Source: Mobula hypostoma
Lineage: Eukaryota
DNA: 64,000 nt
Direction of reading: 5' to 3'
Assembly: GCF_963921235.1 (NCBI RefSeq)
Contig: NC_086097.1
Coordinates: 20,152,001-20,216,000 of the forward strand
Shown: positions 11,148-59,556 of the stretch, piece after piece
Numbering within the stretch: position 1 is the first letter of the stretch
How the letters are laid out: each line of letters begins with the position of its first letter
Program-made: the position numbers and the translations under genes
Notes under the pieces: model-generated
What the model was told of the DNA's origin: nothing
The model's input: the letters and a program-made list of their open reading frames with translations, nothing else
Databases searched by the model: none

Positions 11148-13352
11148 TCTGGTGGCCTTTCAGGAAAGAGAGAAGATTACAACATCTGAGAAAGTTTGAA
11201 TGGGTACATGGAGGGGAGAGGCATAGAGGGCTATGGTCCAGATGTGGGAAGATGGGACTAGGCAGAATAACAGTTTGCCAGATCTAGGTTGGCCTGAGGG
11301 ACAGTTTCTGCATGTGATGTTCTATGACTCTGAGACACAGCAGCAATTCCAACTGAACGTAAAGCTGCAAAGGAGTGAATTATTTGTTTAAAGTTGACCC
11401 CAGTTTTTTCAACATTATAAAAATATTTTGCTTCACATAACATTGTAGCCTTGAACTATGAGGTTCTGTTTTGAACCTGAAACTATTTTGAGAATGACTC
11501 TACAAAAAAAGCAGCAAAGTTTAAATTCGCAAGCTGTAAAACGTGGAGCATTGTATTTGATGCTTTGGAAATGAAAGCTAAGCTTAGGTTTTCACTCATA
11601 CAGTCTATGTACTATACGCCACGATAAATTGAAACATTTAAGAAACGGGCTTTTGGGAGCTATATAGGTTACAGCAGGTAGAAGAATCAGTAAACAACTT
11701 TTTCTCTCTTAGTAAAAAGTTCAAAGTAAATTTATTAATGTACATGTATGTCACCATATACTACCTGGAGATTCATTTTCTTGCAGGCACAGTAAGTACA
11801 AAGAAACACAATAGAATTAACAAAAAACTACACACACACATGGACAAACAACCAATGTGCAAAAGATGGCAAATGGTGCCAGTACAAAAGGAAAAACAAA
11901 ATAACAATAGATAAGTAATAAATAATATTGAGAACATGAGTTGAAGGGTTCTTGAAGGTGAGTCCATAGATTGTGGAATCAGCTCCGTGTTGGGGTGAGT
12001 GATGTTTTCCACACTGGTTCAAGAGCTTGATGTTGAAGGGTAATAACTGTTCCTGAACCTGGTAGTATTGGATCCTCTAGCTCCCCCCTGATGACAGGTG
12101 CAAAAAGCAACCAGGGCTTGGATGCTGGATGCTGCTTTCTTGTGACAATGTTGTATATTTTTTGAGCTCATAGGACTAGATGTTTAATCCCTTTGATGGG
12201 TAGATCCTAACTCGGGTCATAGCATAGAGATCTTGAGGTGGGTGGCAGATGCTTCCTAGGGGTCACCAGGTGGGCACCCGCTTCTTAGATGTTTCGTCAT
12301 TTTAAGCCCACTACATCTCCAGAGGGCCCAACAGTGTCCCAGGTGCATCCTCCCCTCCACATCTGGTCACCCATGGGTCATTTTGAGACCCAGCTGCCAT
12401 CACTCCTCTTCATCCATAACCTTTGGCTGGTTCTAGAGCCTGAAGCTTGAGGAGTAGTAACTATTCCTGAACCTAGTAGTATTGGGTCCTTTACCTCCTT
12501 CCTGAAGACAGGTGCAGAAGAGACCAGGGCCTGGATGGTAGATGCTACTTTCCTGTGACAATGCTGTACTTATTATAAAACTGTAATAAGGGTTCAACTC
12601 AAGTTTATTGTCATTTAACTAGATATATGTATACTGTCAAATGAGACGTTTCTTTGGACCAGAGTGTAAAGCACGGTAACACACAATAACTTGGGAAATT
12701 AGGAATTAAATCTACAAATGAATGAATTGTGTATAGATAAAGTGCATAAATTCAATATTGTAAGGTACAGTTCAAATTATCTGGCGACTCTTCAAATGCG
12801 ATGCAGCAGGGAGTTCAGAAGCCCAGTGGCCTGAGGGGAGAAACTGTTTCCCATCCTGACTGTCATTGTGCATGGGAGTCTCCTGCCTGATAGTAGAAAG
12901 TCAAAGGGGATGATGGATGGGTGGTATCCTTGATAATACCAAGGGTCCTGCATATGTAGTGCTCCTGATAAATGTCCCTGATGGATGGTAGGGAGACCCC
13001 TATGACTCTGAATCTCTATGATCTTCATATTGGAAGAAGGTACGATAGTAATGTTTAAGAGATACGTCGACAAGCACATGCATAGAGATTTTTGAAATTT
13101 TCGTTATTTTTTTTTCTCCAACGGCTTTCTGAGAGGCGGGACTGCGCAGGCGTGTGACGTCGGGCAGTGCAGCGCGGCAGATTTAAAAGGAACAGAGCCT
13201 CATAGAGCGGGCAGCGTAGTTTGCGGGCTGCGGAGTGAGCCGGGAGCAGAGTGAAGACTTAAGGGCTTTGGCTCAACGGGCTTAGGCGGAAGCGGGCGAG
13301 GCGAGGAAGGTTTGACATTCATTTTCTGTTGCTATTTGAGGAGAGGGGCATT

Positions 13353-14288
13353 ATGACTGTGAGGGCAGTTTGCTGTTCTCGGTGTCGGATGTGGGAGGCC
13401 CAGGAGTCTCCAAGCCTCCCGGACGTCTACATCTGCGCCAAGTGCATCGAGATGCAGCTCCTAAGGGACCGCGTTACGGAACTGGAGCTGCAGCTCGATG
13501 ACCTTCGTCTGGTCAGGGAGAGCGAGGAGGTGATAGAGAGGAGTGGAAGGCAGGTGGTCACGCCGGGGCCACGGGAGGCAGACAAGTGGGTCACGGTTAG
13601 GAGGAGGAAGGGGAAAAGGCAGGTGATGGGGAGTACCCTGGTGGCTGTGCCCCTTAACAACAGGTACTCCTGTTTGAGTACTGTTGGAGGGGACAGCTTA
13701 CCCGGGGGAAGCAACAGTGGCCCTGCCTCCGGCACAGAGTCTGGCCCTGTAGCTCAGAAGGGTAGGGCAAGGAAGAGGAGGGCAGTTGTGATAGGGGACT
13801 CGATAGTAAGGGGGTCAGATAGGCGATTCTGTGGACGCAGTCCAGAGACTCGGATGGTAGTTTGCCTCCCTGGTGCCAGGGTCCGGGATATTTCTGATCG
13901 TGTCCAAGATATCCTGAAGTGGGAGGGTGAAGAGCCAGAGGTCCTGGTACATATAGGTACCAATGACATAGGTAGGAAAAGGGATGAGGTCCTGAAAGAA
14001 GAATATAGGGAGCTAGGAAGGGAGTTGAGAAAAAGGACCGCAAAGGTAGTAATCTCGGGATTACTGCCTGTGCCACGCGACAGTGAGAGTAGGAATGCGA
14101 TGAGGTGGAGGATAAATGCGTGGCTGAGGGATTGGAGCAGGGGGCAGGGATTCAAGTTTTTGGATCATTGGGACCTCTATTGGTGCAGGCGTGACCTGTA
14201 CAAAAAGGACGGGTTACACTTAAATCCTAGGGGGACCAATATCCTGGCAGGGAGATTAGCGGGGGCTACTGAGGTGACTTTAAACTAG
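13353..14288 (+). CDS. CR1 ORF1 (zinc finger, coiled coil, SGNH esterase-like domain)
   Basis: First ATG at 13353. CxxC...CxxC, heptad region, GDS motif (VIGDSIV), GTND, DGLHLN. Confidence 0.93.
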   Translation: MTVRAVCCSRCRMWEAQESPSLPDVYICAKCIEMQLLRDRVTELELQLDDLRLVRESEEVIERSGRQVVTPGPREADKWVTVRRRKGKRQVMGSTLVAVPLNNRYSCLSTVGGDSLPGGSNSGPASGTESGPVAQKGRARKRRAVVIGDSIVRGSDRRFCGRSPETRMVVCLPGARVRDISDRVQDILKWEGEEPEVLVHIGTNDIGRKRDEVLKEEYRELGRELRKRTAKVVISGLLPVPRDSESRNAMRWRINAWLRDWSRGQGFKFLDHWDLYWCRRDLYKKDGLHLNPRGTNILAGRLAGATEVTLN

Positions 14289-17200
14289 AATGGTTGGGGG
14301 GTGGGAATCAAATTAAAGAGGCTAGGTGTGAGGAGGTTAGTTCACAACAGAGGGATGGGAACCAGTGCAGAGAGACAGAGGGGTGTAAAGTGAGCGTAGA
14401 AGCAAAAAGTACGAAGGGGAAAAGTAAAAGTGGCAGGCCGACAAATCCAGGGCAAGCATTAAAAAGGGCTAAGAGAGTTGTAAAAGAGCGCCTGAAGGCT
14501 TTATGTGTCAATGCAAGGAGCATTCGTAATAAGGTGGATGAATTGAAAGTGCAGATTGTTATTAATGATTATGATATAGTTGGGATCACAGAGACATGGC
14601 TCCAGGGTGACCAGGGATGGGAGCTCAACGTTCAGGAATATTCAATATTCAGGAGGGATAGACATGAAGGAAGGGGAGGTGGGGTGGCGTTGCTGGTTAA
14701 AAAAGAGATTAACGCAATAGAAAGGAAGGACATAAGCCGGGAAGATGTGGAATCGATATGGGTAGAGCTGCGTAACACTAAGGGGCAGAAGACGCTGGTG
14801 GGAGTTGTGTACAGGCCACCTAACAGTAGTAGTGAGGTCGGAGATGGTATTAAACAGGAAATTAGAAATGTGTGCAATAAAGGAACAGCAGTTATAATGG
14901 GTGACTTCAATCTACATGTAGATTGGGTGAACCAAATTGGTAAAGGTGCTGAGGAAGAGGATTTCTTGGAATGTATGCGGGATGGTTTTTTGAACCAACA
15001 TGTCGAGGAACCGACTAGAGAGCAGGCTATTCTGGACTGGGTTTTGAGCAATGAGGAAGGGTTAATTAGCGATCTTGTCATGAGAGGCCCCTTGGGTAAG
15101 AGTGACCATAATATGGTGGAATTCTTCATTAACATGGAGAGTGACATAGTTAATTCAGAAACAAAGGTTCTGAACTTAAAGAGGGGTAACTTTGAAGGTA
15201 TGAGTCGTGAATTAGCTAAGATAGACTGGCAAATGACACTTAAAGAATTGACGGTGGATATGCAATGGCAGGCATTTAAAGGTTGCATGGATGAACTACA
15301 ACAATTGTTCATCCCAGTTTGGCAAAAGAATAAATCAAGGAAGGTAGTGCACCCGTGGCTGACAAGAGAAATTAGGGATAGTATCAATTCCAAAGAAGTA
15401 GCATACAAATTAGCCAGAGAAAGTGGCTCACCTGAGGACTGGGAGAAATTCAGAGTTCAGCAGAGGAGGACAAAGGGCTTAATTAGGAAGGGAAAAAAAG
15501 ATTATGAGAGAAAACTGGCAGAGAACATAAAAACGGACTGTAAAAGCTTTTATAGATATGTAAAAAGGAAAAGACTGATAAAGACAAATGTAGGTCCCCT
15601 GCAGACAGAAACAGGTGAATTGATTATGGGGAGCAAGAACATGGCAGACCAATTGAATAATTATTTTGGTTCTGTCTTCACTAAGGAGGACATAAATAAT
15701 CTTCCAGAAATAGTAAGGGACAGAGGGTCCAGTGAGATGGAGGAACTGAGTGAAATACATGTTAGTAGGGAAGTGGTGTTAGGTAAATTGAAGGGATTGA
15801 AGGCAGATAAATCCCCAGGGCCAGATGGTCTGCATCCCAGAGTGCTTAAGGAAGTAGCCCAAGAAATAGTGGATGCATTAGTGATAATTTTTCAAAACTC
15901 GTTAGATTCTGGACTAGTTCCTGAGGATTGGAGGGTGGCTAATGTAACCCCACTTTTTAAAAAAGGAGGGAGAGAGAAACCGGGGAATTATAGGCCCGTT
16001 AGCCTAACGTCGGTGGTGGGGAAACTGCTGGAGTCAGTTATCAAGGATGTGATAACAGCACATTTGGAAAGCGGTGAAATGATCGGACAAAGTCAGCATG
16101 GATTTGTGAAAGGAAAATCATGTCTGACGAATCTCATAGAATTTTTTGAGGATGTAACTAGTAGAGTGGATAGGGGAGAACCAGTGGATGTGGTATATTT
16201 GGATTTTCAAAAGGCTTTTGACAAGGTCCCACACAGGAGATTAGTGTGCAAACTTAAAGCACACGGTATTGGGGGTAAGGTATTGGTGTGGGTGGAGAAT
16301 TGGTTAGCAGACAGGAAGCAAAGAGTGGGAATAAACGGGACCTTTTCAGAATGGCAGGCGGTGACTAGTGGGGTACCGCAAGGCTCAGTGCTGGGACCCC
16401 AGTTGTTTACAATATATATTAATGACTTGGATGAGGGAATTAAATGCAGCATCTCCAAGTTTGCGGATGACACAAAGCTGGGTGGCAGTGTTAGCAGTGA
16501 GGAGGATGCTAAGAGGATGCAGGGTGACTTGGATAGGTTGGGTGAGTGGGCAAACTCATGGCAGATGCAATTTAATGTGGATAAATGTGAAGTTATCCAC
16601 TTTGGTGGCAAAAATAGGAAAACAGATTATTATCTGAATGGTGGCCGATTAGGAAAAGGGGAGGTGCAACGAGACCTGGGTGTCATTATACACCAGTCAT
16701 TGAAAGTGGGCATGCAGGTACAGCAGGCGGTGAAAAAGGCGAACGGTATGCTGGCATTTATAGCGAGAGGATTCGAGTACAGGAGCAGGGAGGTACTACT
16801 GCAGTTGTACAAGGCCTTGGTGAGACCACACCTGGAGTATTGTGTGCAGTTTTGGTCCCCTAATCTGAGGAAAGACATCTTTGCCATAGAGGGAGTACAA
16901 AGAAGGTTCACCAGATTGATTCCTGGGATGGCAGGTCTTTCATATGAAGAAAGACTGGATGAACTGGGCTTGTACTCGTTGGAATTTAGAAGATTGAGGG
17001 GGGATCTGATTGAAACGTATAAGATCCTAAAGGGATTGGACAGGCTAGATGCGGGAAGATTGTTCCCGATGTTGGGGAGGTCCAGAACGAGGGGTCACAG
17101 TTTGAGGATAGAGGGGAAGCCTTTTAGGACCGAGATTAGGAAAAACTTCTTCACACAGAGAGTGGTGAATCTGTGGAATTCTCTGCCACAGCAAACTGTT

Positions 17201-17293
17201 GAGGCCAGTTCATTAGCTATGTTTAAAAGGAAGTTAGATATGGCCCTTGTGGCTACAGGGGTCAGGGGGTATGGAGGGAAGGCTGGGTTCTGA
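14273..17293 (+). CDS. CR1 ORF2 (APE endonuclease plus reverse transcriptase); no AUG upstream of the EN domain
   Basis: Open from 14273 to TGA 17293. Motifs ITETWL, YRPP, MGDFN, SDH, KSPGPDG, YRPVSLTS, QGSVLGP, FADD. The track start at 14294 is TTG; the first in-frame ATG is at 14897. Confidence 0.93.
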   Translation, partial: GDFKLEWLGGGNQIKEARCEEVSSQQRDGNQCRETEGCKVSVEAKSTKGKSKSGRPTNPGQALKRAKRVVKERLKALCVNARSIRNKVDELKVQIVINDYDIVGITETWLQGDQGWELNVQEYSIFRRDRHEGRGGGVALLVKKEINAIERKDISREDVESIWVELRNTKGQKTLVGVVYRPPNSSSEVGDGIKQEIRNVCNKGTAVIMGDFNLHVDWVNQIGKGAEEEDFLECMRDGFLNQHVEEPTREQAILDWVLSNEEGLISDLVMRGPLGKSDHNMVEFFINMESDIVNSETKVLNLKRGNFEGMSRELAKIDWQMTLKELTVDMQWQAFKGCMDELQQLFIPVWQKNKSRKVVHPWLTREIRDSINSKEVAYKLARESGSPEDWEKFRVQQRRTKGLIRKGKKDYERKLAENIKTDCKSFYRYVKRKRLIKTNVGPLQTETGELIMGSKNMADQLNNYFGSVFTKEDINNLPEIVRDRGSSEMEELSEIHVSREVVLGKLKGLKADKSPGPDGLHPRVLKEVAQEIVDALVIIFQNSLDSGLVPEDWRVANVTPLFKKGGREKPGNYRPVSLTSVVGKLLESVIKDVITAHLESGEMIGQSQHGFVKGKSCLTNLIEFFEDVTSRVDRGEPVDVVYLDFQKAFDKVPHRRLVCKLKAHGIGGKVLVWVENWLADRKQRVGINGTFSEWQAVTSGVPQGSVLGPQLFTIYINDLDEGIKCSISKFADDTKLGGSVSSEEDAKRMQGDLDRLGEWANSWQMQFNVDKCEVIHFGGKNRKTDYYLNGGRLGKGEVQRDLGVIIHQSLKVGMQVQQAVKKANGMLAFIARGFEYRSREVLLQLYKALVRPHLEYCVQFWSPNLRKDIFAIEGVQRRFTRLIPGMAGLSYEERLDELGLYSLEFRRLRGDLIETYKILKGLDRLDAGRLFPMLGRSRTRGHSLRIEGKPFRTEIRKNFFTQRVVNLWNSLPQQTVEASSLAMFKRKLDMALVATGVRGYGGKAGF

Positions 17294-18436
17294 GTTGGAT
17301 GATCAGCCATGATCATAATAAATGGCGGTGCAGGCTCGAAGGGCCGAATGGCCTACTCCTGCACCTATTTTCTATGTTTCTATGTTTCTATGAAATGGAG
17401 TGATGTAAGCCATGTGCAGGCAAATAGGCTTAGTTTGGATTAGTACCATGTTCGGCACAGACTCCCTGGGTCAAAGGACGTGTTCCTGTGCTGTTCTGTT
17501 CTATAGGGAACATTTGTGGAATTATTACCACAGATGATAAATAGTTATTAATATGGAATTTGCTTCTGTATGGAGTTGCTTTCAGATGAATAATTGATGT
17601 ATAATTTCATGACAATATAAAGGTAGTTGGGGAAATAAATTGCAAGAATAATATGAAGAGATAGATAGGTTAAGTAAGTGGGCAAAAAGTTGGCAAGTGG
17701 GAAATAGTGTAGGGAATGTAGGGGCATCATTTTGGTAGGAAGAATCAAAATCCAGAATACTGCTTAAATGGAGACAAAGGTTTTAAAGAAACACTGTGAA
17801 GGGATCTTATTGTCTTCGTGTATAAAACGAAGTCAGTACAGAGATTAATTAGAAAAGCAAACAGCTGCTGTTCTGTACCGCAGAAGGGGCTTTAGAAAGT
17901 AATATAAAAGTTGGGAAGTTGCTGCTGGCATAGCAGGGTTGGTGTAACCATGGTAAGCATAGCAGTTGGTATGATGCTGTTATAGCTCAGAGCGTTCCGG
18001 AGGTCAGTTCCGATGCCACCTGAAAGAAGTTTGTACATCCTTCCCGTGACAGCATGGGTTTCCTCCAAGTGCTCCAGTTTCTTCCTGATTAATGTAAACT
18101 GTCCTGTGATGAGGCAGGGGTTAAATAGGTGGGTTGCTAGGCACTATGGCTCGTCAGGCCAGAAAGGTCTCTTTCATGCTGTTTCTCTAAAATAGGACTT
18201 ATTTCATAATTTACTGGCATAATTTACATATTACTATTTAACTATTTATGGTTCTATTACTATTTATGGTGCAACTGTAACAAAAACCAATTTACCCCCG
18301 GGATCAATAAAGTATGACAATGACTATGACTAGAGAAGCCCTGATCTTATTGAATGGTTAGTAGACTCAAGAGATCCAATAGTATTCACCTTTTGTATGG
18401 AAACTTAAACTAGTTTGACGATTGCTCTGGAAAATG

Positions 18437-25200: not shown

Positions 25201-26205
25201 CTGTCTCCAAGCTTTCTCTTTTGTGAGCCAACCTCCTCTTCCTCAGTCTCTTCAGTTCGGTTCCCATCCTACAACAATTCTGGTTTAAACTCTCCCGGGT
25301 AGCCTTAACAAACTTCCCAACCAGGATATTGGTCCCCCGGGATTCAAGTGCAACCCATTATTTTTGTGCGGGTCACACCTGGCCCAAAAGAGGTCCCAAT
25401 GATCCAGAAATCTGAATCCCTGTCCCCTGCTCCAATCCCTCAGCCACGCATTTATCCTCCACCTCATTCCATTCCTACTCTCACTGTCGCGTGGCACAGG
25501 CAGTAATCCCGAGATTACTACCTTTGCAGTCCTGCTTCCAACTTCCTTCCTAACTCCCTGTAGTCTGTTTTCAGGATCTCTTCCCTTTTCCTCCTATGTC
25601 ATTGGTACCAATATGTACCATGACCTCTGGCTGTTCTCCCTCCCATTGCAGGATATCTTGGACTGATCTGAAACATCCAGGACCCTCGCACCTGGGAGTC
25701 AAACTACCATCCAAGTTTCTTTCCTGCATCCACAGAATTGCCTGTCTGATCCCCCAACTATAGAATCTCCTATCACTACTACCTTCCTCTTCCTTTCCCT
25801 ACCCTTCTGAGCTACAGGGCCGGACTCTGTGTCAGAAGCACGGCCACTGTTGCTTCCCCCAGGTAGGCTGTCCCCCCCAACAATACTCAAACAGGAGTAC
25901 TTATTGTCAAGATGTACAGCCACAAGGGTACTCTCTAGTACCTGACTCGTGCCCTTCCCCCTCCTGACTGTGACCCACTTGTCTGTCTCCCGTGGCCTCG
26001 GTGTGACCGCCTGCCTATAACTCCTTTCTATCACCTCCTTGCTCTCCCTGACTAAATGAAGGTCACCGAGCTGCATCTCCACTTCCCTAACACGGTCCCT
26101 TAGGAGCTGCAGCTCAACACACCGGGTGCAGATATGGCTGTCTGGGAGACTCCAGGCCTTCCCACATCTGACACCGAGCACAGAAAACCGGCCACAGGAA
26201 GCAGT
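22300..26205 (-). mobile_element. Near full-length degenerate CR1 (second family)
   Basis: ORF1 fragments (VIGDSIV), EN (YRPP, MGDFN, SDH) and RT (QHGF, QGSVLGP, FADD) with many frameshifts. Tail at about 22300. Confidence 0.92.
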
Positions 26206-30327: not shown

Positions 30328-31172
30328 ATATTTGCTATTGTTAAGATTACCGTATTCTGCATTCTACATTTTTGCCTTGTAATACTTCAGTAAAGTGATT
30401 CATCTATGTTTTTCACTGTAATTCACTACACAATTAACAAACCACTTCCAATTCCAATTATGTCTTAAGTACCAAATTCCCCAACCCCTTGGTACCACAA
30501 CAGTCTTTTAGTTTCATTGCATTTGCTTTTCAATCCTCCCAATGGATAACCTCACATTATACTCCACCTTTCCAAGTTTTCGTCCAGTCACTCAACTGAT
30601 CAAGTTCCTGGGATGGCAAGGACTTTAGGTGGGTGGACTATGGTGTATTGACTATAGTTTAGAAGAAAGATTGGATCACTCATTTGAAATATATAAAATT
30701 CTATAAGGATGAAATGATTCCCTTTTCATAAAACCCCTGCTTGATTTCCTGCTTTCACCTTGATATGGAGGCTTTAGAAAGGAGGCAGAAGAGGTTCACA
30801 AAGATGCTATCTGGATTAGAGGGCATGTGTTACACAGAGATGGGAACATACTTCTGGGAAAGTGGCAGAAACAGGTTGGGTAGCAATGTTTAAGAGGCAC
30901 TTAGACAGACATGAACAAGCAGGGAACAGACTGCCATCACTCAGGACAAGCCCTCTTATTGCTACCATCCAGAAGACACAGGAGTTGAAGACACACACTC
31001 AATTTTAGGAACCAGTTCTTCCCACCCCTCCACACCAACAGATTTCTGCACAGATAATAAACCCATGTACACTATGTCACTACTTTTTGCTCTCTTTTTG
31101 AGTTACTTATTTAACTTTATAAATATATATATTTTTAGTTATTTATAGTTTTAAATTATGTATTGTAATGTA

Positions 31173-32075
31173 CAGTCAGCCCTCCTTATCCGCGAGGGAT
31201 TGGTTCCGGGACCCCTCGCGGATACCAATAAACACGGATGCTCAAGTCCCTGATTCAACCTGTCTCAATGCAGTGGACCTTAGGACCCAGCGGAACCCCG
31301 GACCTTATTTAACCTGTCTCAGTATGGTGGACATTAGGGCCTGGCAGCAGAGCTCTGAATCTGCAGTGTTTCTGCTCACGAAAATAATCACGATCACGAT
31401 TGAGAATAAAGTGGAAATAATAAAGCGATCAGAAAGAGGTGAAATGTCATCAGTCATTGGAAAAGCATTAGACTACAGTCGGTCAACGATTGGAACAATT
31501 TTAAAGGATAAAGTGAGAAAGGCCCTGCCCCGATTAAAGTTACAATTATTACTAAGCAACACAGTGATTTAATTATTGGGTTCTGAAGTTTTGGGTTTTT
31601 GATCCTCCACATCAACCCAGCATGGATGGAGCGCGTGCTCAGGAGCGGTCTGTCACTGGATCGAACTTCCGTTCCCAAGCCCATTGCTGAAACATACGTT
31701 TCTTAAGTATTTTATGTGCATAGAAAGGTAAAATATATACTATATACTAAGACAAACGTTTGACTAACTGACGCTAAATAATACCAGATGTACCTGTTCC
31801 GACTTACTTAGTAAGAGAACTTCCGGTTTTTTATTGATCCCGATCCACGATAACCTATGCACATCCTCCCATATACTTTAACTCATGTCTAGATTACTTA
31901 CAATATCTAATACAATGTAAATAGTTGTTATACTGTATTGTTTAGGGAACAATGTCAAGAAAAAAGGTCTGTACATGCACGAACAACAAGCACTGGAACA
32001 GCACTTCCAGGTTTTCTCAATTCGCGGTTGGTTGAATTCGCACATGCGGAACTCGCGGATAACAAGGGCCGACAG
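31173..32075 (+). mobile_element. Tigger/pogo-type non-autonomous DNA transposon
   Basis: TIRs CAGTCAGCCCTCCTTATCCGCG / CGCGGATAACAAGGGCCGACAG, TA TSD, CENP-B-like HTH remnant ITIENKVEIIKRSERGE...STIGTILKDK. Confidence 0.9.
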
Positions 32076-32497
32076 TACTGCTTCCATAAAACAATACATT
32101 TCATGACATAAGCCAGTGATAGTAATCTTAATTCCGGGAGCTAGAGACCACATGCAGAGAGGTGGGATTAGTTAGAGTGGATCGTGATGGTGGGCCACGT
32201 GACTTGTTCCTGCGCTGTTCTTTATTTCACGTTCTAACATCACCAGGGAAACAGTTTACTACATGCACTGCCCAGTTCAAGGTAGCAAGCTCTGTCATCC
32301 TATAAAGCAGCAGTCCCCAACCACCGGGCTGCGAGGAAACGATATGAATTGGCGATATGAGTCAGCTGCACCTTTCCTCATTCCCTGTCATGCCCACTGT
32401 TGAGCTTGAACACACGCGAGGTCATTACCCGCGCGTCATCCATGTCAGCACGGGAAGGAGATCAACTCCCCGAGCTTGCAAATGACGGCAGGCTGAA

Positions 32498-35455
32498 ATG
32501 TTTGACATAACATCTCTGTCGGCATTCTGGATCAAAGTCAAGGCTAAGTATCCTGAGATAGCCACGAAAGCACTGAAAATGTTGCTTCCATTTGGCAGGC
32601 CGACAAATCCAGGGCAAGCATTAAAAAGGGCTAAGAGAGTTGTAAAAGAGCGCCTGAAGGCTTTATGTGTCAATGCAAGGAGCATTCGTAATAAGGTGGA
32701 TGAATTGAAAGTGCAGATTGTTATTAATGATTATGATATAGTTGGGATCACAGAGACATGGCTCCAGGGTGACCAGGGATGGGAGCTCAACGTTCAGGGA
32801 TATTCAATATTCAGGAGGGATAGACACGAAGGAAGGGGAGGTGGGGTGGCGTTGCTGGTTAAAAAAGAGATTAACGCAATAGAAAGGAAGGACATAAGCC
32901 GGGAAGATGTGGAATCGATATGGGTAGAGCTGCGTAACACTAAGGGGCAGAAGACGCTGCTGGGAGTTGTGTACAGGCCACCTAACAGTAGTAGTGAGGT
33001 CGGAGATGGTATTAAACAGGAAATTAGAAATGTGTGCAATAAAGGAACAGCAGTTATAATGGGTGACTTCAATCTACATGTAGACTGGGTGAACCAAATT
33101 GGTAAAGGTGCTGAGGAAGAGGATTTCTTGGAATGTATGCGGGATGGTTTTTTGAACCAACATGTCGAGGAACCGACTAGAGAGCAGGCTATTCTGGACT
33201 GGGTTTTGAGCAATGAGGAAGGGTTAATTAGCGATCTTGTCGTGAGAGGCCCCTTGGGTAAGAGTGACCATAATATGGTGGAATTCTTCATTAACATGGA
33301 GAGTGACGTAGTTAATTCAGAAACAAAGGTTCTGAACTTAAAGAGGGGTAACTTTGAAGGTATGAGACATGAATTAGCTAAGATAGACTGGCAAATGACA
33401 CTTCAAGGATTGACGGTGGATATGCAATGGCAGGCATTTAAAGGTTGCATGGATGAACTACAACAATTGTTCATCCCAGTTTGGCAAAAGAATAAATCAA
33501 GGAAGGTAGTGCACCCGTGGCTGACAAGAGAAATTAGGGATAGTATCAATTCCAAAGAAGTAGCATACAAATTAGCCAGAGAAAGTGGCTCACCTGAGGA
33601 CTGGGAGAAATTCAGAGTTCAGCAGAGGAGGACAAAGGGCTTAATTAGGAAGGGGAAAAAAGATTATGAGAGAAAACTGGCAGAGAACATAAAAACGGAC
33701 TGTAAAAGCTTTTATAGATATGTAAAAAGGAAAAGACTGATAAAGACAAATGTAGGTCCCCTGCAAACAGAAACAGGTGAATTGATTATGGGGAGCAAGG
33801 ACATGGCAGACCAATTGAATAATTACTTTGGTTCTGTCTTCACTAAGGAGGACATAAATAATCTTCCAGAAATAGTAAGGGACAGAGGGTCCAGTGAGAT
33901 GGAGGAACTGAGCGAAATACATGTTAGTAGGGAAGTGGTGTTAGGTAAATTGAAGGGATTGAAGGCAGATAAATCCCCAGGGCCAGATGGTCTGCATCCC
34001 AGAGTGCTTAAGGAAGTGGCCCAAGAAATAGTGGATGCATTAGTGATAATTTTTCAAAACTCGTTAGATTCTGGACTAGTTCCTGAGGATTGGAGGGTGG
34101 CTAATGTAACCCCACTTTTTAAAAAAGGAGGGAGAGAGAAACCGGGGAATTATAGGCCGGTTAGCCTAACGTCGGTGGTGGGGAAACTGCTGGAGTCAGT
34201 TATCAAGGATGTGATAACAGCACATTTGGAAAGCGGTGAAATGATCGGACAAAGTCAGCATGGATTTGTGAAAGGAAAATCATGTCTGACGAATCTCATA
34301 GAATTTTTTGAGGATGTAACTAGTAGAGTGGATAGGGGAGAACCAGTGGATGTGGTATATTTGGATTTTCAAAAGGCTTTTGACAAGGTCCCACACAGGA
34401 GATTAGTGTGCAAACTTAAAGCACATGGTATTGGGGGTAAGGTATTGGTGTGGGTGGAGAATTGGTTAGCAGACAGGAAGCAAAGAGTGGGAATAAACGG
34501 GACCTTTTCAGAATGGCAGGCGGTGACTAGTGGGGTACCGCAAGGCTCAGTGCTGGGACCCCAGTTGTTTACAATATATATTAATGACTTGGATGAGGGA
34601 ATTAAATGCAGCATCTCCAAGTTTGCGGATGACACGAAGCTGGGTGGCAGTGTTAGCAGTGAGGAGGATGCTAAGAGGATGCAGGGTGACTTGGATAGGT
34701 TGGGTGAGTGGGCAAACTCATGGCAGATGCAATTTAATGTGGATAAATGTGAAGTTATCCACTTTGGTGGCAAAAATAGGAAAACAGATTATTATCTGAA
34801 TGGTGGCCGATTAGGAAAAGGGGAGGTGCAACGAGACCTGGGTGTCATTATACACCAGTCATTGAAAGTGGGCATGCAGGTACAGCAGGCGGTGAAAAAG
34901 GCGAACGGTATGCTGGCATTTATAGCGAGAGGATTCGAGTACAGGAGCAGGGAGGTACTACTGCAGTTGTACAAGGCCTTGGTGAGACCACACCTGGAGT
35001 ATTGTGTGCAGTTTTGGTCCCCTAATCTGAGGAAAGACATCCTTGCCATAGAGGGAGTACAAAGAAGGTTCACCAGATTGATTCCTGGGATGGCAGGTCT
35101 TTCATATGAAGAAAGACTGGATGAACTGGGCTTGTACTCGTTGGAATTTAGAAGATTGAGGGGGGATCTGATTGAAACGTATAAGATCCTAAAGGGATTG
35201 GACAGGCTAGATGCGGGAAGATTGTTCCCGATGTTGGGGAGGTCTAGAACGAGGGGTCACAGTTTGAGGATAGAGGGGAAGTCTTTTAGGACCGAGGTTA
35301 GGAAAAACTTCTTCACACAGAGAGTGGTGAATCTGTGGAATTCTCTGCCACAGCAAACTGTTGAGGCCAGTTCATTAGCTATGTTTAAAAGGAAGTTAGA
35401 TATGGCCCTTGTGGCTACAGGGGTCACGGGGTATGGAGGGAAGGCTGGGTTCTGA
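32498..35455 (+). CDS. Chimeric ORF: 32 aa of hAT transposase C-terminus plus intact CR1 ORF2 (985 aa)
   Basis: Real ATG at 32498. FWIKVKAKYPEIATKALKMLLPF (hAT dimerization region) runs in frame into CR1 GRPTNPGQ. Expression unknown. Confidence 0.7.
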   Translation: MFDITSLSAFWIKVKAKYPEIATKALKMLLPFGRPTNPGQALKRAKRVVKERLKALCVNARSIRNKVDELKVQIVINDYDIVGITETWLQGDQGWELNVQGYSIFRRDRHEGRGGGVALLVKKEINAIERKDISREDVESIWVELRNTKGQKTLLGVVYRPPNSSSEVGDGIKQEIRNVCNKGTAVIMGDFNLHVDWVNQIGKGAEEEDFLECMRDGFLNQHVEEPTREQAILDWVLSNEEGLISDLVVRGPLGKSDHNMVEFFINMESDVVNSETKVLNLKRGNFEGMRHELAKIDWQMTLQGLTVDMQWQAFKGCMDELQQLFIPVWQKNKSRKVVHPWLTREIRDSINSKEVAYKLARESGSPEDWEKFRVQQRRTKGLIRKGKKDYERKLAENIKTDCKSFYRYVKRKRLIKTNVGPLQTETGELIMGSKDMADQLNNYFGSVFTKEDINNLPEIVRDRGSSEMEELSEIHVSREVVLGKLKGLKADKSPGPDGLHPRVLKEVAQEIVDALVIIFQNSLDSGLVPEDWRVANVTPLFKKGGREKPGNYRPVSLTSVVGKLLESVIKDVITAHLESGEMIGQSQHGFVKGKSCLTNLIEFFEDVTSRVDRGEPVDVVYLDFQKAFDKVPHRRLVCKLKAHGIGGKVLVWVENWLADRKQRVGINGTFSEWQAVTSGVPQGSVLGPQLFTIYINDLDEGIKCSISKFADDTKLGGSVSSEEDAKRMQGDLDRLGEWANSWQMQFNVDKCEVIHFGGKNRKTDYYLNGGRLGKGEVQRDLGVIIHQSLKVGMQVQQAVKKANGMLAFIARGFEYRSREVLLQLYKALVRPHLEYCVQFWSPNLRKDILAIEGVQRRFTRLIPGMAGLSYEERLDELGLYSLEFRRLRGDLIETYKILKGLDRLDAGRLFPMLGRSRTRGHSLRIEGKSFRTEVRKNFFTQRVVNLWNSLPQQTVEASSLAMFKRKLDMALVATGVTGYGGKAGF

Positions 35456-35551
35456 GTTGGATGATCAGCCATGATCATAATAAATGGCGGTGCAGGCTCG
35501 AAGGGCCGAATGGCCTACTCCTGCACCTATTTTCTATGTTTCTATGTTTCT
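32594..35551 (+). mobile_element. 5'-truncated CR1, near-identical to 13089-17392
   Basis: Colinear with about 14432-17390, same (TTTCTATG)n tail, short TSD ATTT (32590-93 / 35552-55). Confidence 0.95.
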
Positions 35552-56786: not shown

Positions 56787-57713
56787 CTAGGGAGCAGATC
56801 ACCTCTGTATAATGAAGTCTCCTCTGTGCAGATGTCCTAGATATATGCATCCTTGTGCTATCACTTGTCTTCCTTACCCATATCTCATTTGTTCCAACTG
56901 AGCTAATTACACAATCTTCGTATTCTCCTTAGATTCCAAATAGATAGCCTGACCTTTATGATACCATCTCTTATCGTAATATAACTTTCCATCTCCTATT
57001 TGTGTTTCATATCTTTGTGCTGGTGATTCAGCAGGAGTGCTGGGAAGATGCTCAGGAGAGGACGGAGATGCTGGTCTTTTCAGAGGTTTAAGCTTATTGA
57101 GAGTTCGCAAATCTTCCATTATCTGTTCATCTGTTAACAAGAAATTTAACTGCGCAGATACAGGTTTTCGTCTTTTGTCTGTAATTGGAACAGGGTTATT
57201 AGGTCTCCTCCTTAGTTTCCTAGTCATTATTGGCTATACCTCCATAGAATCTCCAGTGAGTTCCATTGTTAGCCTCTCATTCTCAATCATCTTTTTCTTT
57301 TCTTCTAACTCAATCTTTTTATCTTCAAATTCCTTCACTGCTGCTTTCTTCTCTTTAATATAATTCCTTTCCACTTGATCTGTCTCCAGTTGCAGAAAAA
57401 GCTCTGCATTTCGTATTCTTTCCTTGTATTGTTGATCTAGTTTCTTCATCCTTTTCTGATACTCCTGCAAAGTGCCTTCCTGTAGCTGCTGTAGCTGTCT
57501 TTTGAGAGATGTCAATTTCTCCTGGTACATCTGCTCTTTTACTTCCAGGTAGTCTTCATCATCCTGCTTATTGGCAATATCAGTCTCCCTTGCATCCTCT
57601 GTATCTTCATCTGAGTCGCGGCCACGGATACTGCGTTCGTCCTCATCAATGCTGTCAAGGTCCTCCTCGTCATTGTAATAGTCAACAATGGGTGAGAGGA
57701 GAGCTGCAGACAT
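56787..57713 (-). pseudogene. SUDS3: Processed (intronless) SUDS3 retrocopy, full CDS span
   Basis: MSAALLSP...[52 protein letters not shown]...[11 protein letters not shown]...[13 protein letters not shown]...[13 protein letters not shown]...[20 protein letters not shown] matches SUDS3. Lesions: TAG at 57236-34, frameshift near 56912, TGA at 56801-799, and an 8-codon deletion relative to human SUDS3 as recalled. Confidence 0.95.
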
Positions 57714-59556
57714 CTTCCCTGCCGAGCTGCCCTCCTTTGTTGACACATCTAGTGCCTTGACGGTATGCCAATCCAACTGGATTTTTCTGAGCCATTCACA
57801 TCCCAGCAACTGTGGTCCTCCATTTTTCAGTACATAGAGGTCCAGCTGCTGTGCTTCGTCTCTGTAGGTCACTGTCCCTTTAATTTTACCTTTGGGACGC
57901 ACTTTCTGTCCTGTAAGTCTTTAGCAGTAGCTTAGTTCGTTTCAGAGGTATGTGAGAAAACAGTCATTTGTAGTCGTGTACAGAGATCACTGTTGAAGCT
58001 GACCCTGTGTCCAACTCCATTTTCAGTCTCACACCTGCCACTTGTGGAGTGATCCTTATTACTCTTCAATCATCTGTCTCTTTCACGCTGTGAAGTCGTA
58101 GACAAGACAATTCACTTTCGTCTGAGTCGTTTTCATCAGAACTGCTTTTTTCCATTTTGTGTACATTGTTGTATTTTCCTTCTGGGGTTTCTTGTTTCTC
58201 TGCATTTTGTCCTTTTTCTGCTGTTTACTAGCTTTGTATACTCTGGCAATGTGGCCCTGTTTGCTACAGTTTCTGCATTCTTGGTCTTTAAACCAACAGT
58301 CATCCAGGTCATGTGACCTGTCCCCACAACGGTAACATTTCTTTCCTTCATATCTGTTCAGTGACATTTTATTCGTGGCATATTCCAGAGATTTTTGTTG
58401 CATCTCGGGAGCACCCCGTGCCGCTGTTTCCATTGATATTGCAATGTTTAGCGCTTTCTCGAATGAAAGGTCTCCTTCACACAGAAGGTTTCACAGTGCA
58501 TGCCACACACTAACCTGTCCCTCAATGCGTCCAATAGACTAGCTCCAAATTGACAATGTTCTGATAATTGCGCAATTCAGCACAATATTCAGAAATGCTT
58601 TCATTTTTGCTCTGATTCCGATTGTGAAATTTAAATCTTTCAGCAATAACCAGTAGTTTAGGGTTTAAATGCTGTTGGAGAGGGTCTACTATTTGTTTGA
58701 ACGTTTTGTCAGCTGGCTTTTCGGGGGTTAACAAGTTCCGTAGCAGGCGGTATGTTTTTGTTCCCATAATGAGTAAGACACTGGCTTTCTTTTAATCCTT
58801 AACACTGTTAGGCTCACAATATAACTCCACTCTTTCAATGTCAGGCTACGTCCACAGTAGACAGGATAATTTTGAAAACGCCGGTTTCCCATAAAAATGA
58901 TAGGTGTCCACACCAGGTGTTTTTAAAAATACCTCCGTCCACATTAAAGCAGGTATTTGGGCGAATCTCCTCCTACTGGGCATGCACAGGACACATCTAC
59001 AGAAAACAAGCGAAGAGGAAACAGTATACTATTTCCGTTTCCGCGGCCGGCGTTGTGCTATTTCCATTGGTCAAAAATTAAGAGTACCTACAACAACAGC
59101 AAAAGAAAGTTTTCAACCATGTCTTTGAGGAATACAAAGAAAACCTCCGCTGGAAAAAGCAGCTATGAACACAGACAATAAAGTAAACAACACACACGAA
59201 GCCGTCCACCATTGTTGTTGTGGTGGTGTTGGAAGTTGCGTTCAAGAAAACAATGAAATGCTGCACTGCCACCACCATCTGTTCCGGTACGTCATAACAG
59301 CGTTTTTAAAAAAGCTCTGATTACCCCGTACACACTACACCTCCCAACCAGCATTTTTAGATTTACACACTCTGAAGAGCGTTTTAGAAAAGTTCCGTTT
59401 TCGGGGGAGGAAAACGCCGTTTCAGTGTGGACGGAGGGTCAAAACAAAGAGAAAAGGCTTCGGTTGCGGATTTATCCGGTCTACTGTGGACATAGCCTAA
59501 GTTGCCCAGTCTTCAATGCCACTATCAAATGCTATAATGGTTCCAATCACTGCCAT
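57714..59556 (-). pseudogene. Gypsy gag-protease, disrupted
   Basis: ATG at 59556 gives MAVIGTIIAFDSGIEDWAT|YIERVELYC across the MITE. Also seen: TYRLLRNLLTPEKP...IAERFKFH, zinc knuckles CYRCGDRSHDLDDC and CRNCSKQGH, protease MELDTGSA (58020) and LLGCEWL. Frameshifts and stops present. Confidence 0.92.
58844..59497. mobile_element. PIF/Harbinger-like MITE inserted in gag
   Basis: TIRs GGCTACGTCCACAGTAGACAGGATAA / GGCTATGTCCACAGTAGACCGGATAA. 3-bp TSD TAA (one copy mutated to TCA). Removing it restores the gag frame. Confidence 0.9.

Follow-up and report, generated by a model that had tools for sequence, protein, structure and literature searches.

How the second open reading frame (ORF2) of long interspersed nuclear elements (LINEs) is translated is a long-standing open question (PMC3894237; papers are cited by PMC number for the excerpts consulted). 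CR1-group elements dominate the retrotransposons of most vertebrate species (PMC13343379). Their canonical vertebrate form, whose ORF1 combines zinc-finger/leucine-zipper and esterase modules (type IVB, CR1 subgroup 7), is the closest described counterpart of the element analyzed here, a full-length young CR1 LINE of a family that we call F1. It lies at 13135..17392 (+) of a 64,000-nucleotide stretch of Mobula hypostoma DNA (NC_086097.1, positions 20,152,001 to 20,216,000), hereafter the window. F1 has the same two ORFs, the same apurinic/apyrimidinic-type (APE) endonuclease and reverse transcriptase, and the same short-repeat 3′ end as the canonical elements (PMC4120745, PMC13343379), and consensus library rows of the latter share the F1-type ORF1/ORF2 junction (PMC13343379).

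Several translational strategies are available for comparison. SART1, with its UAAUG stop-start coupling, and mammalian L1, with reinitiation, likewise use bicistronic LINE RNA, and one M. hypostoma family, F6, shares the UAAUG motif. However, F1 and most of the lineages compared have no junction AUG, unlike SART1, and the L1 spacer is 63 nt long. A LINE in yeast needs its AUG (PMC1965478). The ORF2 of the Dictyostelium elements TRE5-A and TRE3-A is stated to require a −1 frameshift (PMC5911963); these are L1-clade non-LTR elements (without long terminal repeats), and their clade and ORF1 differ from those of CR1. Infectious bronchitis virus and other coronaviruses (U UUA AAC) and retroviral gag-pol offer the same heptamer and phase, a −1-frame polymerase ORF downstream and a predicted minority fusion product. 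In contrast to these viral signals, the CR1 junction has no detected 3′ pseudoknot or stem-loop, places a stop directly past the heptamer, belongs to a non-LTR element and comes with no detected protease domain. [quoted passage not shown]

Here, we compare the ORF1/ORF2 junction of F1 across CR1 lineages. Its conserved heptamer, stop and G-run probably form a programmed −1 ribosomal frameshift signal that would yield an ORF1-ORF2 fusion. The excerpts of PMC13343379, PMC11303007, PMC4120745, PMC3905857, PMC2734521, PMC3894237 and PMC11835228 contain no statement of frameshifting at the CR1 junction, and a full-text literature search returned no report of it; the original descriptions of CR1 in chicken and turtle lie outside that search, and an older remark on the overlap is possible.

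The F1 element and its junction

The extent of F1 was set from its sequence, its ORFs and genome matches, and its 5′ end is approximate. ORF1 (13353..14288, + like all F1 features; 311 aa) carries N-terminal Cys pairs and an SGNH/GDSL esterase (Lipase_GDSL_2, E 1.5e-16 in a domain search) and ends in Leu-Asn-stop. Its nearest named relatives come from rays, the top one being a Mobula hypostoma protein (96%). A 4159-bp contig labelled Pseudomonas aeruginosa (P0020) also encodes a protein with 59% identity to F1 ORF1, probably an elasmobranch contamination of the bacterial record. The ORF2 frame (14273..17293, 1006 aa), −1 relative to ORF1, consists of a linker of about 75 codons, the APE endonuclease (Exo_endo_phos, E 2e-11) and the reverse transcriptase (RVT_1, E 1e-33); the domain search found no protease domain in the element. 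The 3′ end (17320-17392) shows on direct inspection an inverted repeat and a short tandem repeat of the TTTCTATG type, without poly(A), an arrangement that is characteristic of CR1. Judged by its ORF1 relatives and by CR1-labelled library rows that share its junction, we consider the element a canonical CR1 LINE of the esterase type.

At the junction, ORF1 ends ACT TTA AAC TAG (14277-14288), so that the heptamer U UUA AAC (14279..14285) stands in X XXY YYZ phase immediately 5′ of the UAG stop (14286..14288), which reads as Leu in the −1 frame and is replaced by UAA or UGA in other lineages. The predicted entry point into ORF2 is 14285. The first in-frame ATG of ORF2 lies at 14897..14899 (aa 209), downstream of the endonuclease's N-terminal half. 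Since the endonuclease motifs NARS (aa 80), ITETW (aa 105) and VYRPP (aa 179) all precede it, initiation there would cost half of the endonuclease. This first Met is at the identical place in 27 of 30 F1 copies, a sample of best matches that is biased towards the query. An out-of-frame AUG opens an 8-codon ORF (14290..14316) 1 nt past the stop; it is typical of F1 only, being present in 30/30 F1 copies and in one of the 25 listed junctions of the older family F2. A G-run, the candidate stimulator, follows at 14296..14301. The first-pass annotation of this DNA, which had proposed a −1 frameshift here, described each of these frames as we find them: the phased heptamer, an ORF2 open from 14273 with its first ATG inside the endonuclease, and an ATG at 14290 out of frame with ORF2. 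It had placed the G-rich tract 6 nt past the heptamer, and a tract does begin at 14292, but the conserved part is the run that starts 10 nt past the heptamer.

The frame of ATG 14290 depends on the length of this run, and the same annotation had named a family consensus of five G as grounds against its reading. Exact counts of the 32-base junction in the genome gave 3530 for the six-G form and 70 for the five-G form, and a five-G consensus is rejected. Since the six-G junction is the family norm, the out-of-frame position of ATG 14290 is not an artefact of one copy. F1 copies are nearly identical at the junction (99-100% in 40/40 scored genome matches). The 7-mer TTTAAAC by itself occurs 17 times on both strands of the window, so that a lone match means little; what exceeds chance is the conservation across lineages.

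A second, 5′-truncated F1 copy lies at 32593-35550 (+, 3′ end approximate). It begins within the ORF2 linker and hence has no junction; its frame, open from 32486 in the flanking DNA, encodes 989 aa with endonuclease and reverse transcriptase.

Conservation of the heptamer across CR1 lineages

Seven families of the M. hypostoma genome were sampled with DNA or protein queries, and the junction was located through an esterase motif, with the last 12 residues left out of the search. Of 177 copies examined, 176 could be located, and 154 of these carried the heptamer, mostly at a constant offset: F1 30/30, F2 30/30, F3 16/29, F4 28/30, F5 17/17, F6 17/20 and F7 16/20, F3 being an old, decayed family. 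Three families close ORF1 with TAG and the other four with TAA. Two sets of copies drawn with distant queries had the exact heptamer in 8/9 and 6/7 anchored copies, with one unanchored copy in each set. A metagenome scan yielded 26 loci at 23-55% identity, 12 of which end before the junction. The 14 that hold it, nine of them bird/reptile CR1-like and five more distant as judged by protein similarity, all have the heptamer, exact in 12 and as G UUA AAC and U UUA AAU in one each.

The first-pass annotation had suggested alignment of junctions across CR1 consensus sequences. The library of PMC13343379 was searched over the initial 400 nt of every row, which gives no denominator, and the rows were judged by eye; in 18 of the 22 rows shown, heptamer and stop stand where ORF1 ends, in consensus sequences from alligator, crocodile, bearded dragon, bullfrog, coelacanth, bowfin, halosaur, chimaera, sharks and rays. 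Six single-base variants of the heptamer gave 6 matches in this library, none of them in a CR1 row.

We then compared codon usage in 21 representatives, comprising 8 groups of the M. hypostoma genome and 13 metagenome loci, the latter anchored by a short motif close to where ORF1 ends in the alignment. The Leu codon is UUA in 21/21 (background 12%), the Asn codon AAC in 20/21 (33%) and the base before the Leu codon U in 20/21 (26%). The top codon of 13 other conserved columns reached a share of 29-74%, with a mean synonymous identity of 0.37. The residue preceding Leu-Asn is variable (T, S, A, C, G, D, Y or H). A stop directly follows the heptamer in 19 of the 21 and varies in identity (TAG 14, TAA 4, TGA 1, mutated 2). 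G occupies offsets +17 to +21 in 19/20, 20/20, 19/20, 19/19 and 17/19 lineages. ORF2 is in the −1 frame wherever it is readable, and the upstream −1 stop is usually 2-6 codons away. Synonymous variation of the heptamer, the other observation that the first-pass annotation had expected to speak against frameshifting, was not seen across families. The junction is a nucleotide signal conserved beyond coding need, and not a peptide signal.

ORF1 C-termini in distant relatives

For more distant relatives, the comparison is at the protein level only. Among 142 ORF1 proteins, 111 have a complete C-terminus, of which 81 end in Leu-Asn (L-N) and 15 in Gly-Asn (G-N). The latter ending, as Q/K/A/V-G-N, is found in 15 of 24 proteins of a crustacean-type clade, one of them named from snow crab. 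When the preceding residue is classified by whether its codons end only in pyrimidines or only in purines, the ratio is 14:2 before L-N and 0:13 before G-N, the pattern that U UUA AAC and G GGA AAC call for. The anchor motif was found in 83 of 129 new distant representatives; 38 of these end in L-N, 7 in G-N and 3 in Lys-Asn (K-N). A slippery-compatible dipeptide lies 21-34 residues past the anchor in 33 of the 45 proteins without an L-N end, compared with a null mean of 12.7 and a maximum of 23 in 2000 draws, with p-values that are overstated because the sequences are related. In nine of the 33, position 28 holds K-N and the stop comes 2-12 codons further on. These patterns suggest that the more distant elements have switched at this site to different dipeptides that are still slippery-compatible; G-N and K-N are what G GGA AAC and A AAA AAC would encode. 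Both heptamers rank with U UUA AAC among the most shift-prone (PMC5009743). The signature is absent from a subgroup with a DGLHP motif, which probably comprises fish L2-type ORF1s.

No DNA was obtained for the F-F clade, and the search for DNA of the G-N and K-N clades gave no match in viral contigs, one 25% bacterial match in genome contigs and no junction in the consensus library, and the copies read in the M. hypostoma genome belong to L-N families only. Esterase-ORF1 CR1-like elements also occur outside vertebrates (L123, L125, L126, L127, L131 and the P0128 clade, with snow crab named). The esterase ORF1 type has been described as restricted to vertebrate subgroups (PMC4120745), and a wider spread has also been noted (PMC3905857).

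Recombinant origin of the F1 junction

The ORF1 end and junction of F1 (14000-14290) are 88% identical to family F2 (255/291) and 69% identical to F6, while over 14900-15400 F1 is 93% identical to F6. F1 is an ORF1/ORF2 recombinant, with its 5′ part (ORF1 and junction) from the F2 lineage and its ORF2 from the F6 lineage, joined at approximately 14345..14360. This crossover coincides with the G-rich tract of F6; the broken relic of the F6 G-run inside F1 is ambiguous in meaning, since the crossover falls there. The F6 junction reads UAAUG, so that an AUG of the −1 frame overlaps the stop, and another Met usually follows at codon 20. F1 has neither of these in-frame AUGs and has gained the out-of-frame one. 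Since the donor AUGs were lost and yet thousands of near-identical copies exist, the ORF2 of F1 appears to work without an AUG of its own.

The first-pass annotation had cited a minus-strand CR1 copy as a second, diverged instance of the junction. The heptamer (25289 to 25283; 25283..25289, −), the quoted peptide and the lack of an ATG all hold. However, this is a decayed F2 copy with CAG in place of the stop and a broken G-run, and since the F1 junction derives from the F2 lineage it is not independent evidence. In the F2 family as a whole, the heptamer is present in 30/30 copies and the TAG stop in 26/30. A 3′ fragment of a different CR1 family (26930-26220, −) lies directly upstream of the decayed copy, which has no 5′ untranslated region (UTR) of its own.

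Proposed mechanism and alternative explanations

The heptamer in phase, a −1 ORF open from the heptamer and excess nucleotide conservation together support the frameshift interpretation of the first-pass annotation. Most ribosomes would terminate at the UAG and release the 311-aa ORF1 protein (ORF1p). In a minority, tRNA-Leu and tRNA-Asn would slip one base back, from UUA AAC to UUU AAA, and the former stop would be decoded as Leu. Reading would then go on through the variable linker of about 75 residues into the endonuclease and reverse transcriptase to give a product of about 1313 aa. The predicted outcome is a high ratio of ORF1p to ORF2 protein (ORF2p), like that of retroviral Gag to Gag-Pol.

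Certain observations weigh against this interpretation. Neither a canonical 3′ stem-loop nor a fold resembling a pseudoknot was detected (z from −1.6 to +1.7 across 19 lineages, 0.70 in F1), and slippery heptamers without a stimulator shift weakly. UAAUG stands in the −1 frame of F6 and of three shark library rows, and two amniote-like loci have an AUG at codon 5. Of 18 lineages, 11 have some in-frame AUG 5′ of the endonuclease (at codons 4-90, some of them copy-specific), and the linker of F1 itself holds in-frame UUG and GUG codons. The longer homologues, a weak test, include no full-length natural protein with ORF1 and ORF2 in a single ORF. Lastly, the lineages are related, and counts across them are hence not independent. 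The remaining 7 of the 18 lineages, however, have no AUG 5′ of the endonuclease. Copies in which an indel has fused ORF1 and ORF2 do exist (P0035, P0058 and P0165); a CR1 copy at G000:C1:217918320-217919177 (+), whose 1097-aa frame is open through ORF1, is probably of this kind.

The most developed alternative is termination followed by reinitiation, in which ribosomes halt at the ORF1 stop and resume translation in the −1 frame at an overlapping or nearby AUG or non-AUG codon to make a separate ORF2p, and the heptamer and G-run tune termination or tether the 40S subunit. The UAAUG of F6 is a SART1-type stop-start (PMC3894237, PMC5972666), initiation of mammalian L1 ORF2 has been described as AUG-independent (PMC5009743), the stop follows the heptamer directly in nearly all representatives, and a UUG lies close to the junction in F1, F2, F4 and F5. 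We nevertheless consider this explanation improbable, since it predicts neither the X XXY YYZ phase, nor the switching among L-N, G-N and K-N, nor a fixed K-N with a displaced stop. The start position is not conserved, and 6 of 19 lineages have neither an in-frame AUG nor a near-cognate start in −1 codons 3-11. An in-frame AUG that overlaps or adjoins the stop is absent in F1, and one within codons 3-11 occurs in 4 of the 19; F1 even presents the decoy AUG 1 nt past its stop. Stop-start reinitiation also features a UGGGA tether that lies 30-90 nt upstream of the stop; this motif is absent in F1 and present in 4/19 lineages.

A mixed system, in which the frameshift is ancestral and reinitiation at linker AUGs has joined or replaced it in some families, or the fusion is cleaved later, would account for the scattered linker AUGs, the UAAUG of F6 included. 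It seems very unlikely to us, given that the AUG positions are non-homologous and that the AUG-bearing F6 keeps its heptamer in 17/20 copies; for the F1 element itself, it is compatible with the frameshift interpretation. Hardly credible is a cause of conservation that has nothing to do with recoding. A need for C-terminal Leu-Asn would fit the predominance of that ending but is excluded, as a protein-only cause, by the codon fixation. A splice acceptor at the stop would fit the AG of TAG; UAA and UGA families have no such AG, and splicing there is rejected because the stop identity varies. Contigs from 4 runs, none recorded as RNA, showed no joint at the ORF1 stop among the matches listed, a negative that carries no weight here. 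Polymerase slippage on the G-run could bring AUG 14290 into frame, as in the 70 five-G genomic copies, yet these are 2% of both forms, and F2 does not typically carry this upstream AUG, which the other representatives lack. The junction is a genuine recoding-type signal, deeply conserved, in a known element, and most likely acts as a −1 frameshift with an atypical stimulator.

Search for a stimulator

The G-rich tract had been put forward in the first-pass annotation as a stimulator, with RNA folding or G-quadruplex formation to be probed. We found no conserved local fold in a search that covered nested folds and duplex scans only, and since no stem-loop or pseudoknot was detected 5-9 nt downstream in these scans, the junction is not filed as a canonical structure-stimulated frameshift. 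Rfam gave two matches only, both far under the gathering score. A G-quadruplex stimulator is not supported, as one was predicted in just 5/19 lineages. In F1, F3 and three F6 copies, pairing of the G-run with a pyrimidine arm in the 3′ UTR takes ranks 2-4 out of about 100-136 sites; it is poor in F2, F4, F5, F7 and the distant loci and is rejected. Pairing with C-L-P-G codons about 420 nt upstream is recurrent, yet the Pro codons vary freely and show no compensation, so that this pairing is not supported.

What the lineages do share is a downstream unstructured motif, namely the conserved G-run at a 10-nt spacer. Since no RNA fold is conserved, we favour a ribosomal pause caused by this G-run, which is probably protein-bound and possibly aided by the adjacent stop, and we hold this part of the model with the least certainty. 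A broader scheme is possible but rather doubtful: esterase-type CR1 LINEs of vertebrates and invertebrates would have in common a −1 frameshift of ancient origin, which alternates among the classical heptamers U UUA AAC, G GGA AAC and A AAA AAC and is driven, in place of an RNA fold, by a protein on the G-run, either a host binder or ORF1p, with the reverse transcriptase acting as an uncleaved fusion.

If the frameshift interpretation is true, CR1 ORF2 starts are mis-annotated, and intact elements have been called broken or AUG-less. The enzyme would also carry the ORF1 esterase module, and views of how CR1 particles assemble and of cis preference would change accordingly. The signal spans about 30 nt; lacking a fold, its stimulator would be unusual in its own right. 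The protein-on-G-run reading, if true, would provide a genome-encoded cellular case of protein-stimulated frameshifting.

Other features of the window

Two further features lie outside the CR1 copies. A Pogo/Tigger-like element at 31170-32078 has 27-nt terminal inverted repeats and the remnant of a CENP-B N-terminal domain. An open frame at 57237-57920 (−) encodes an Sds3-like domain (E 1.8e-8) and may be a host gene exon or a processed copy.

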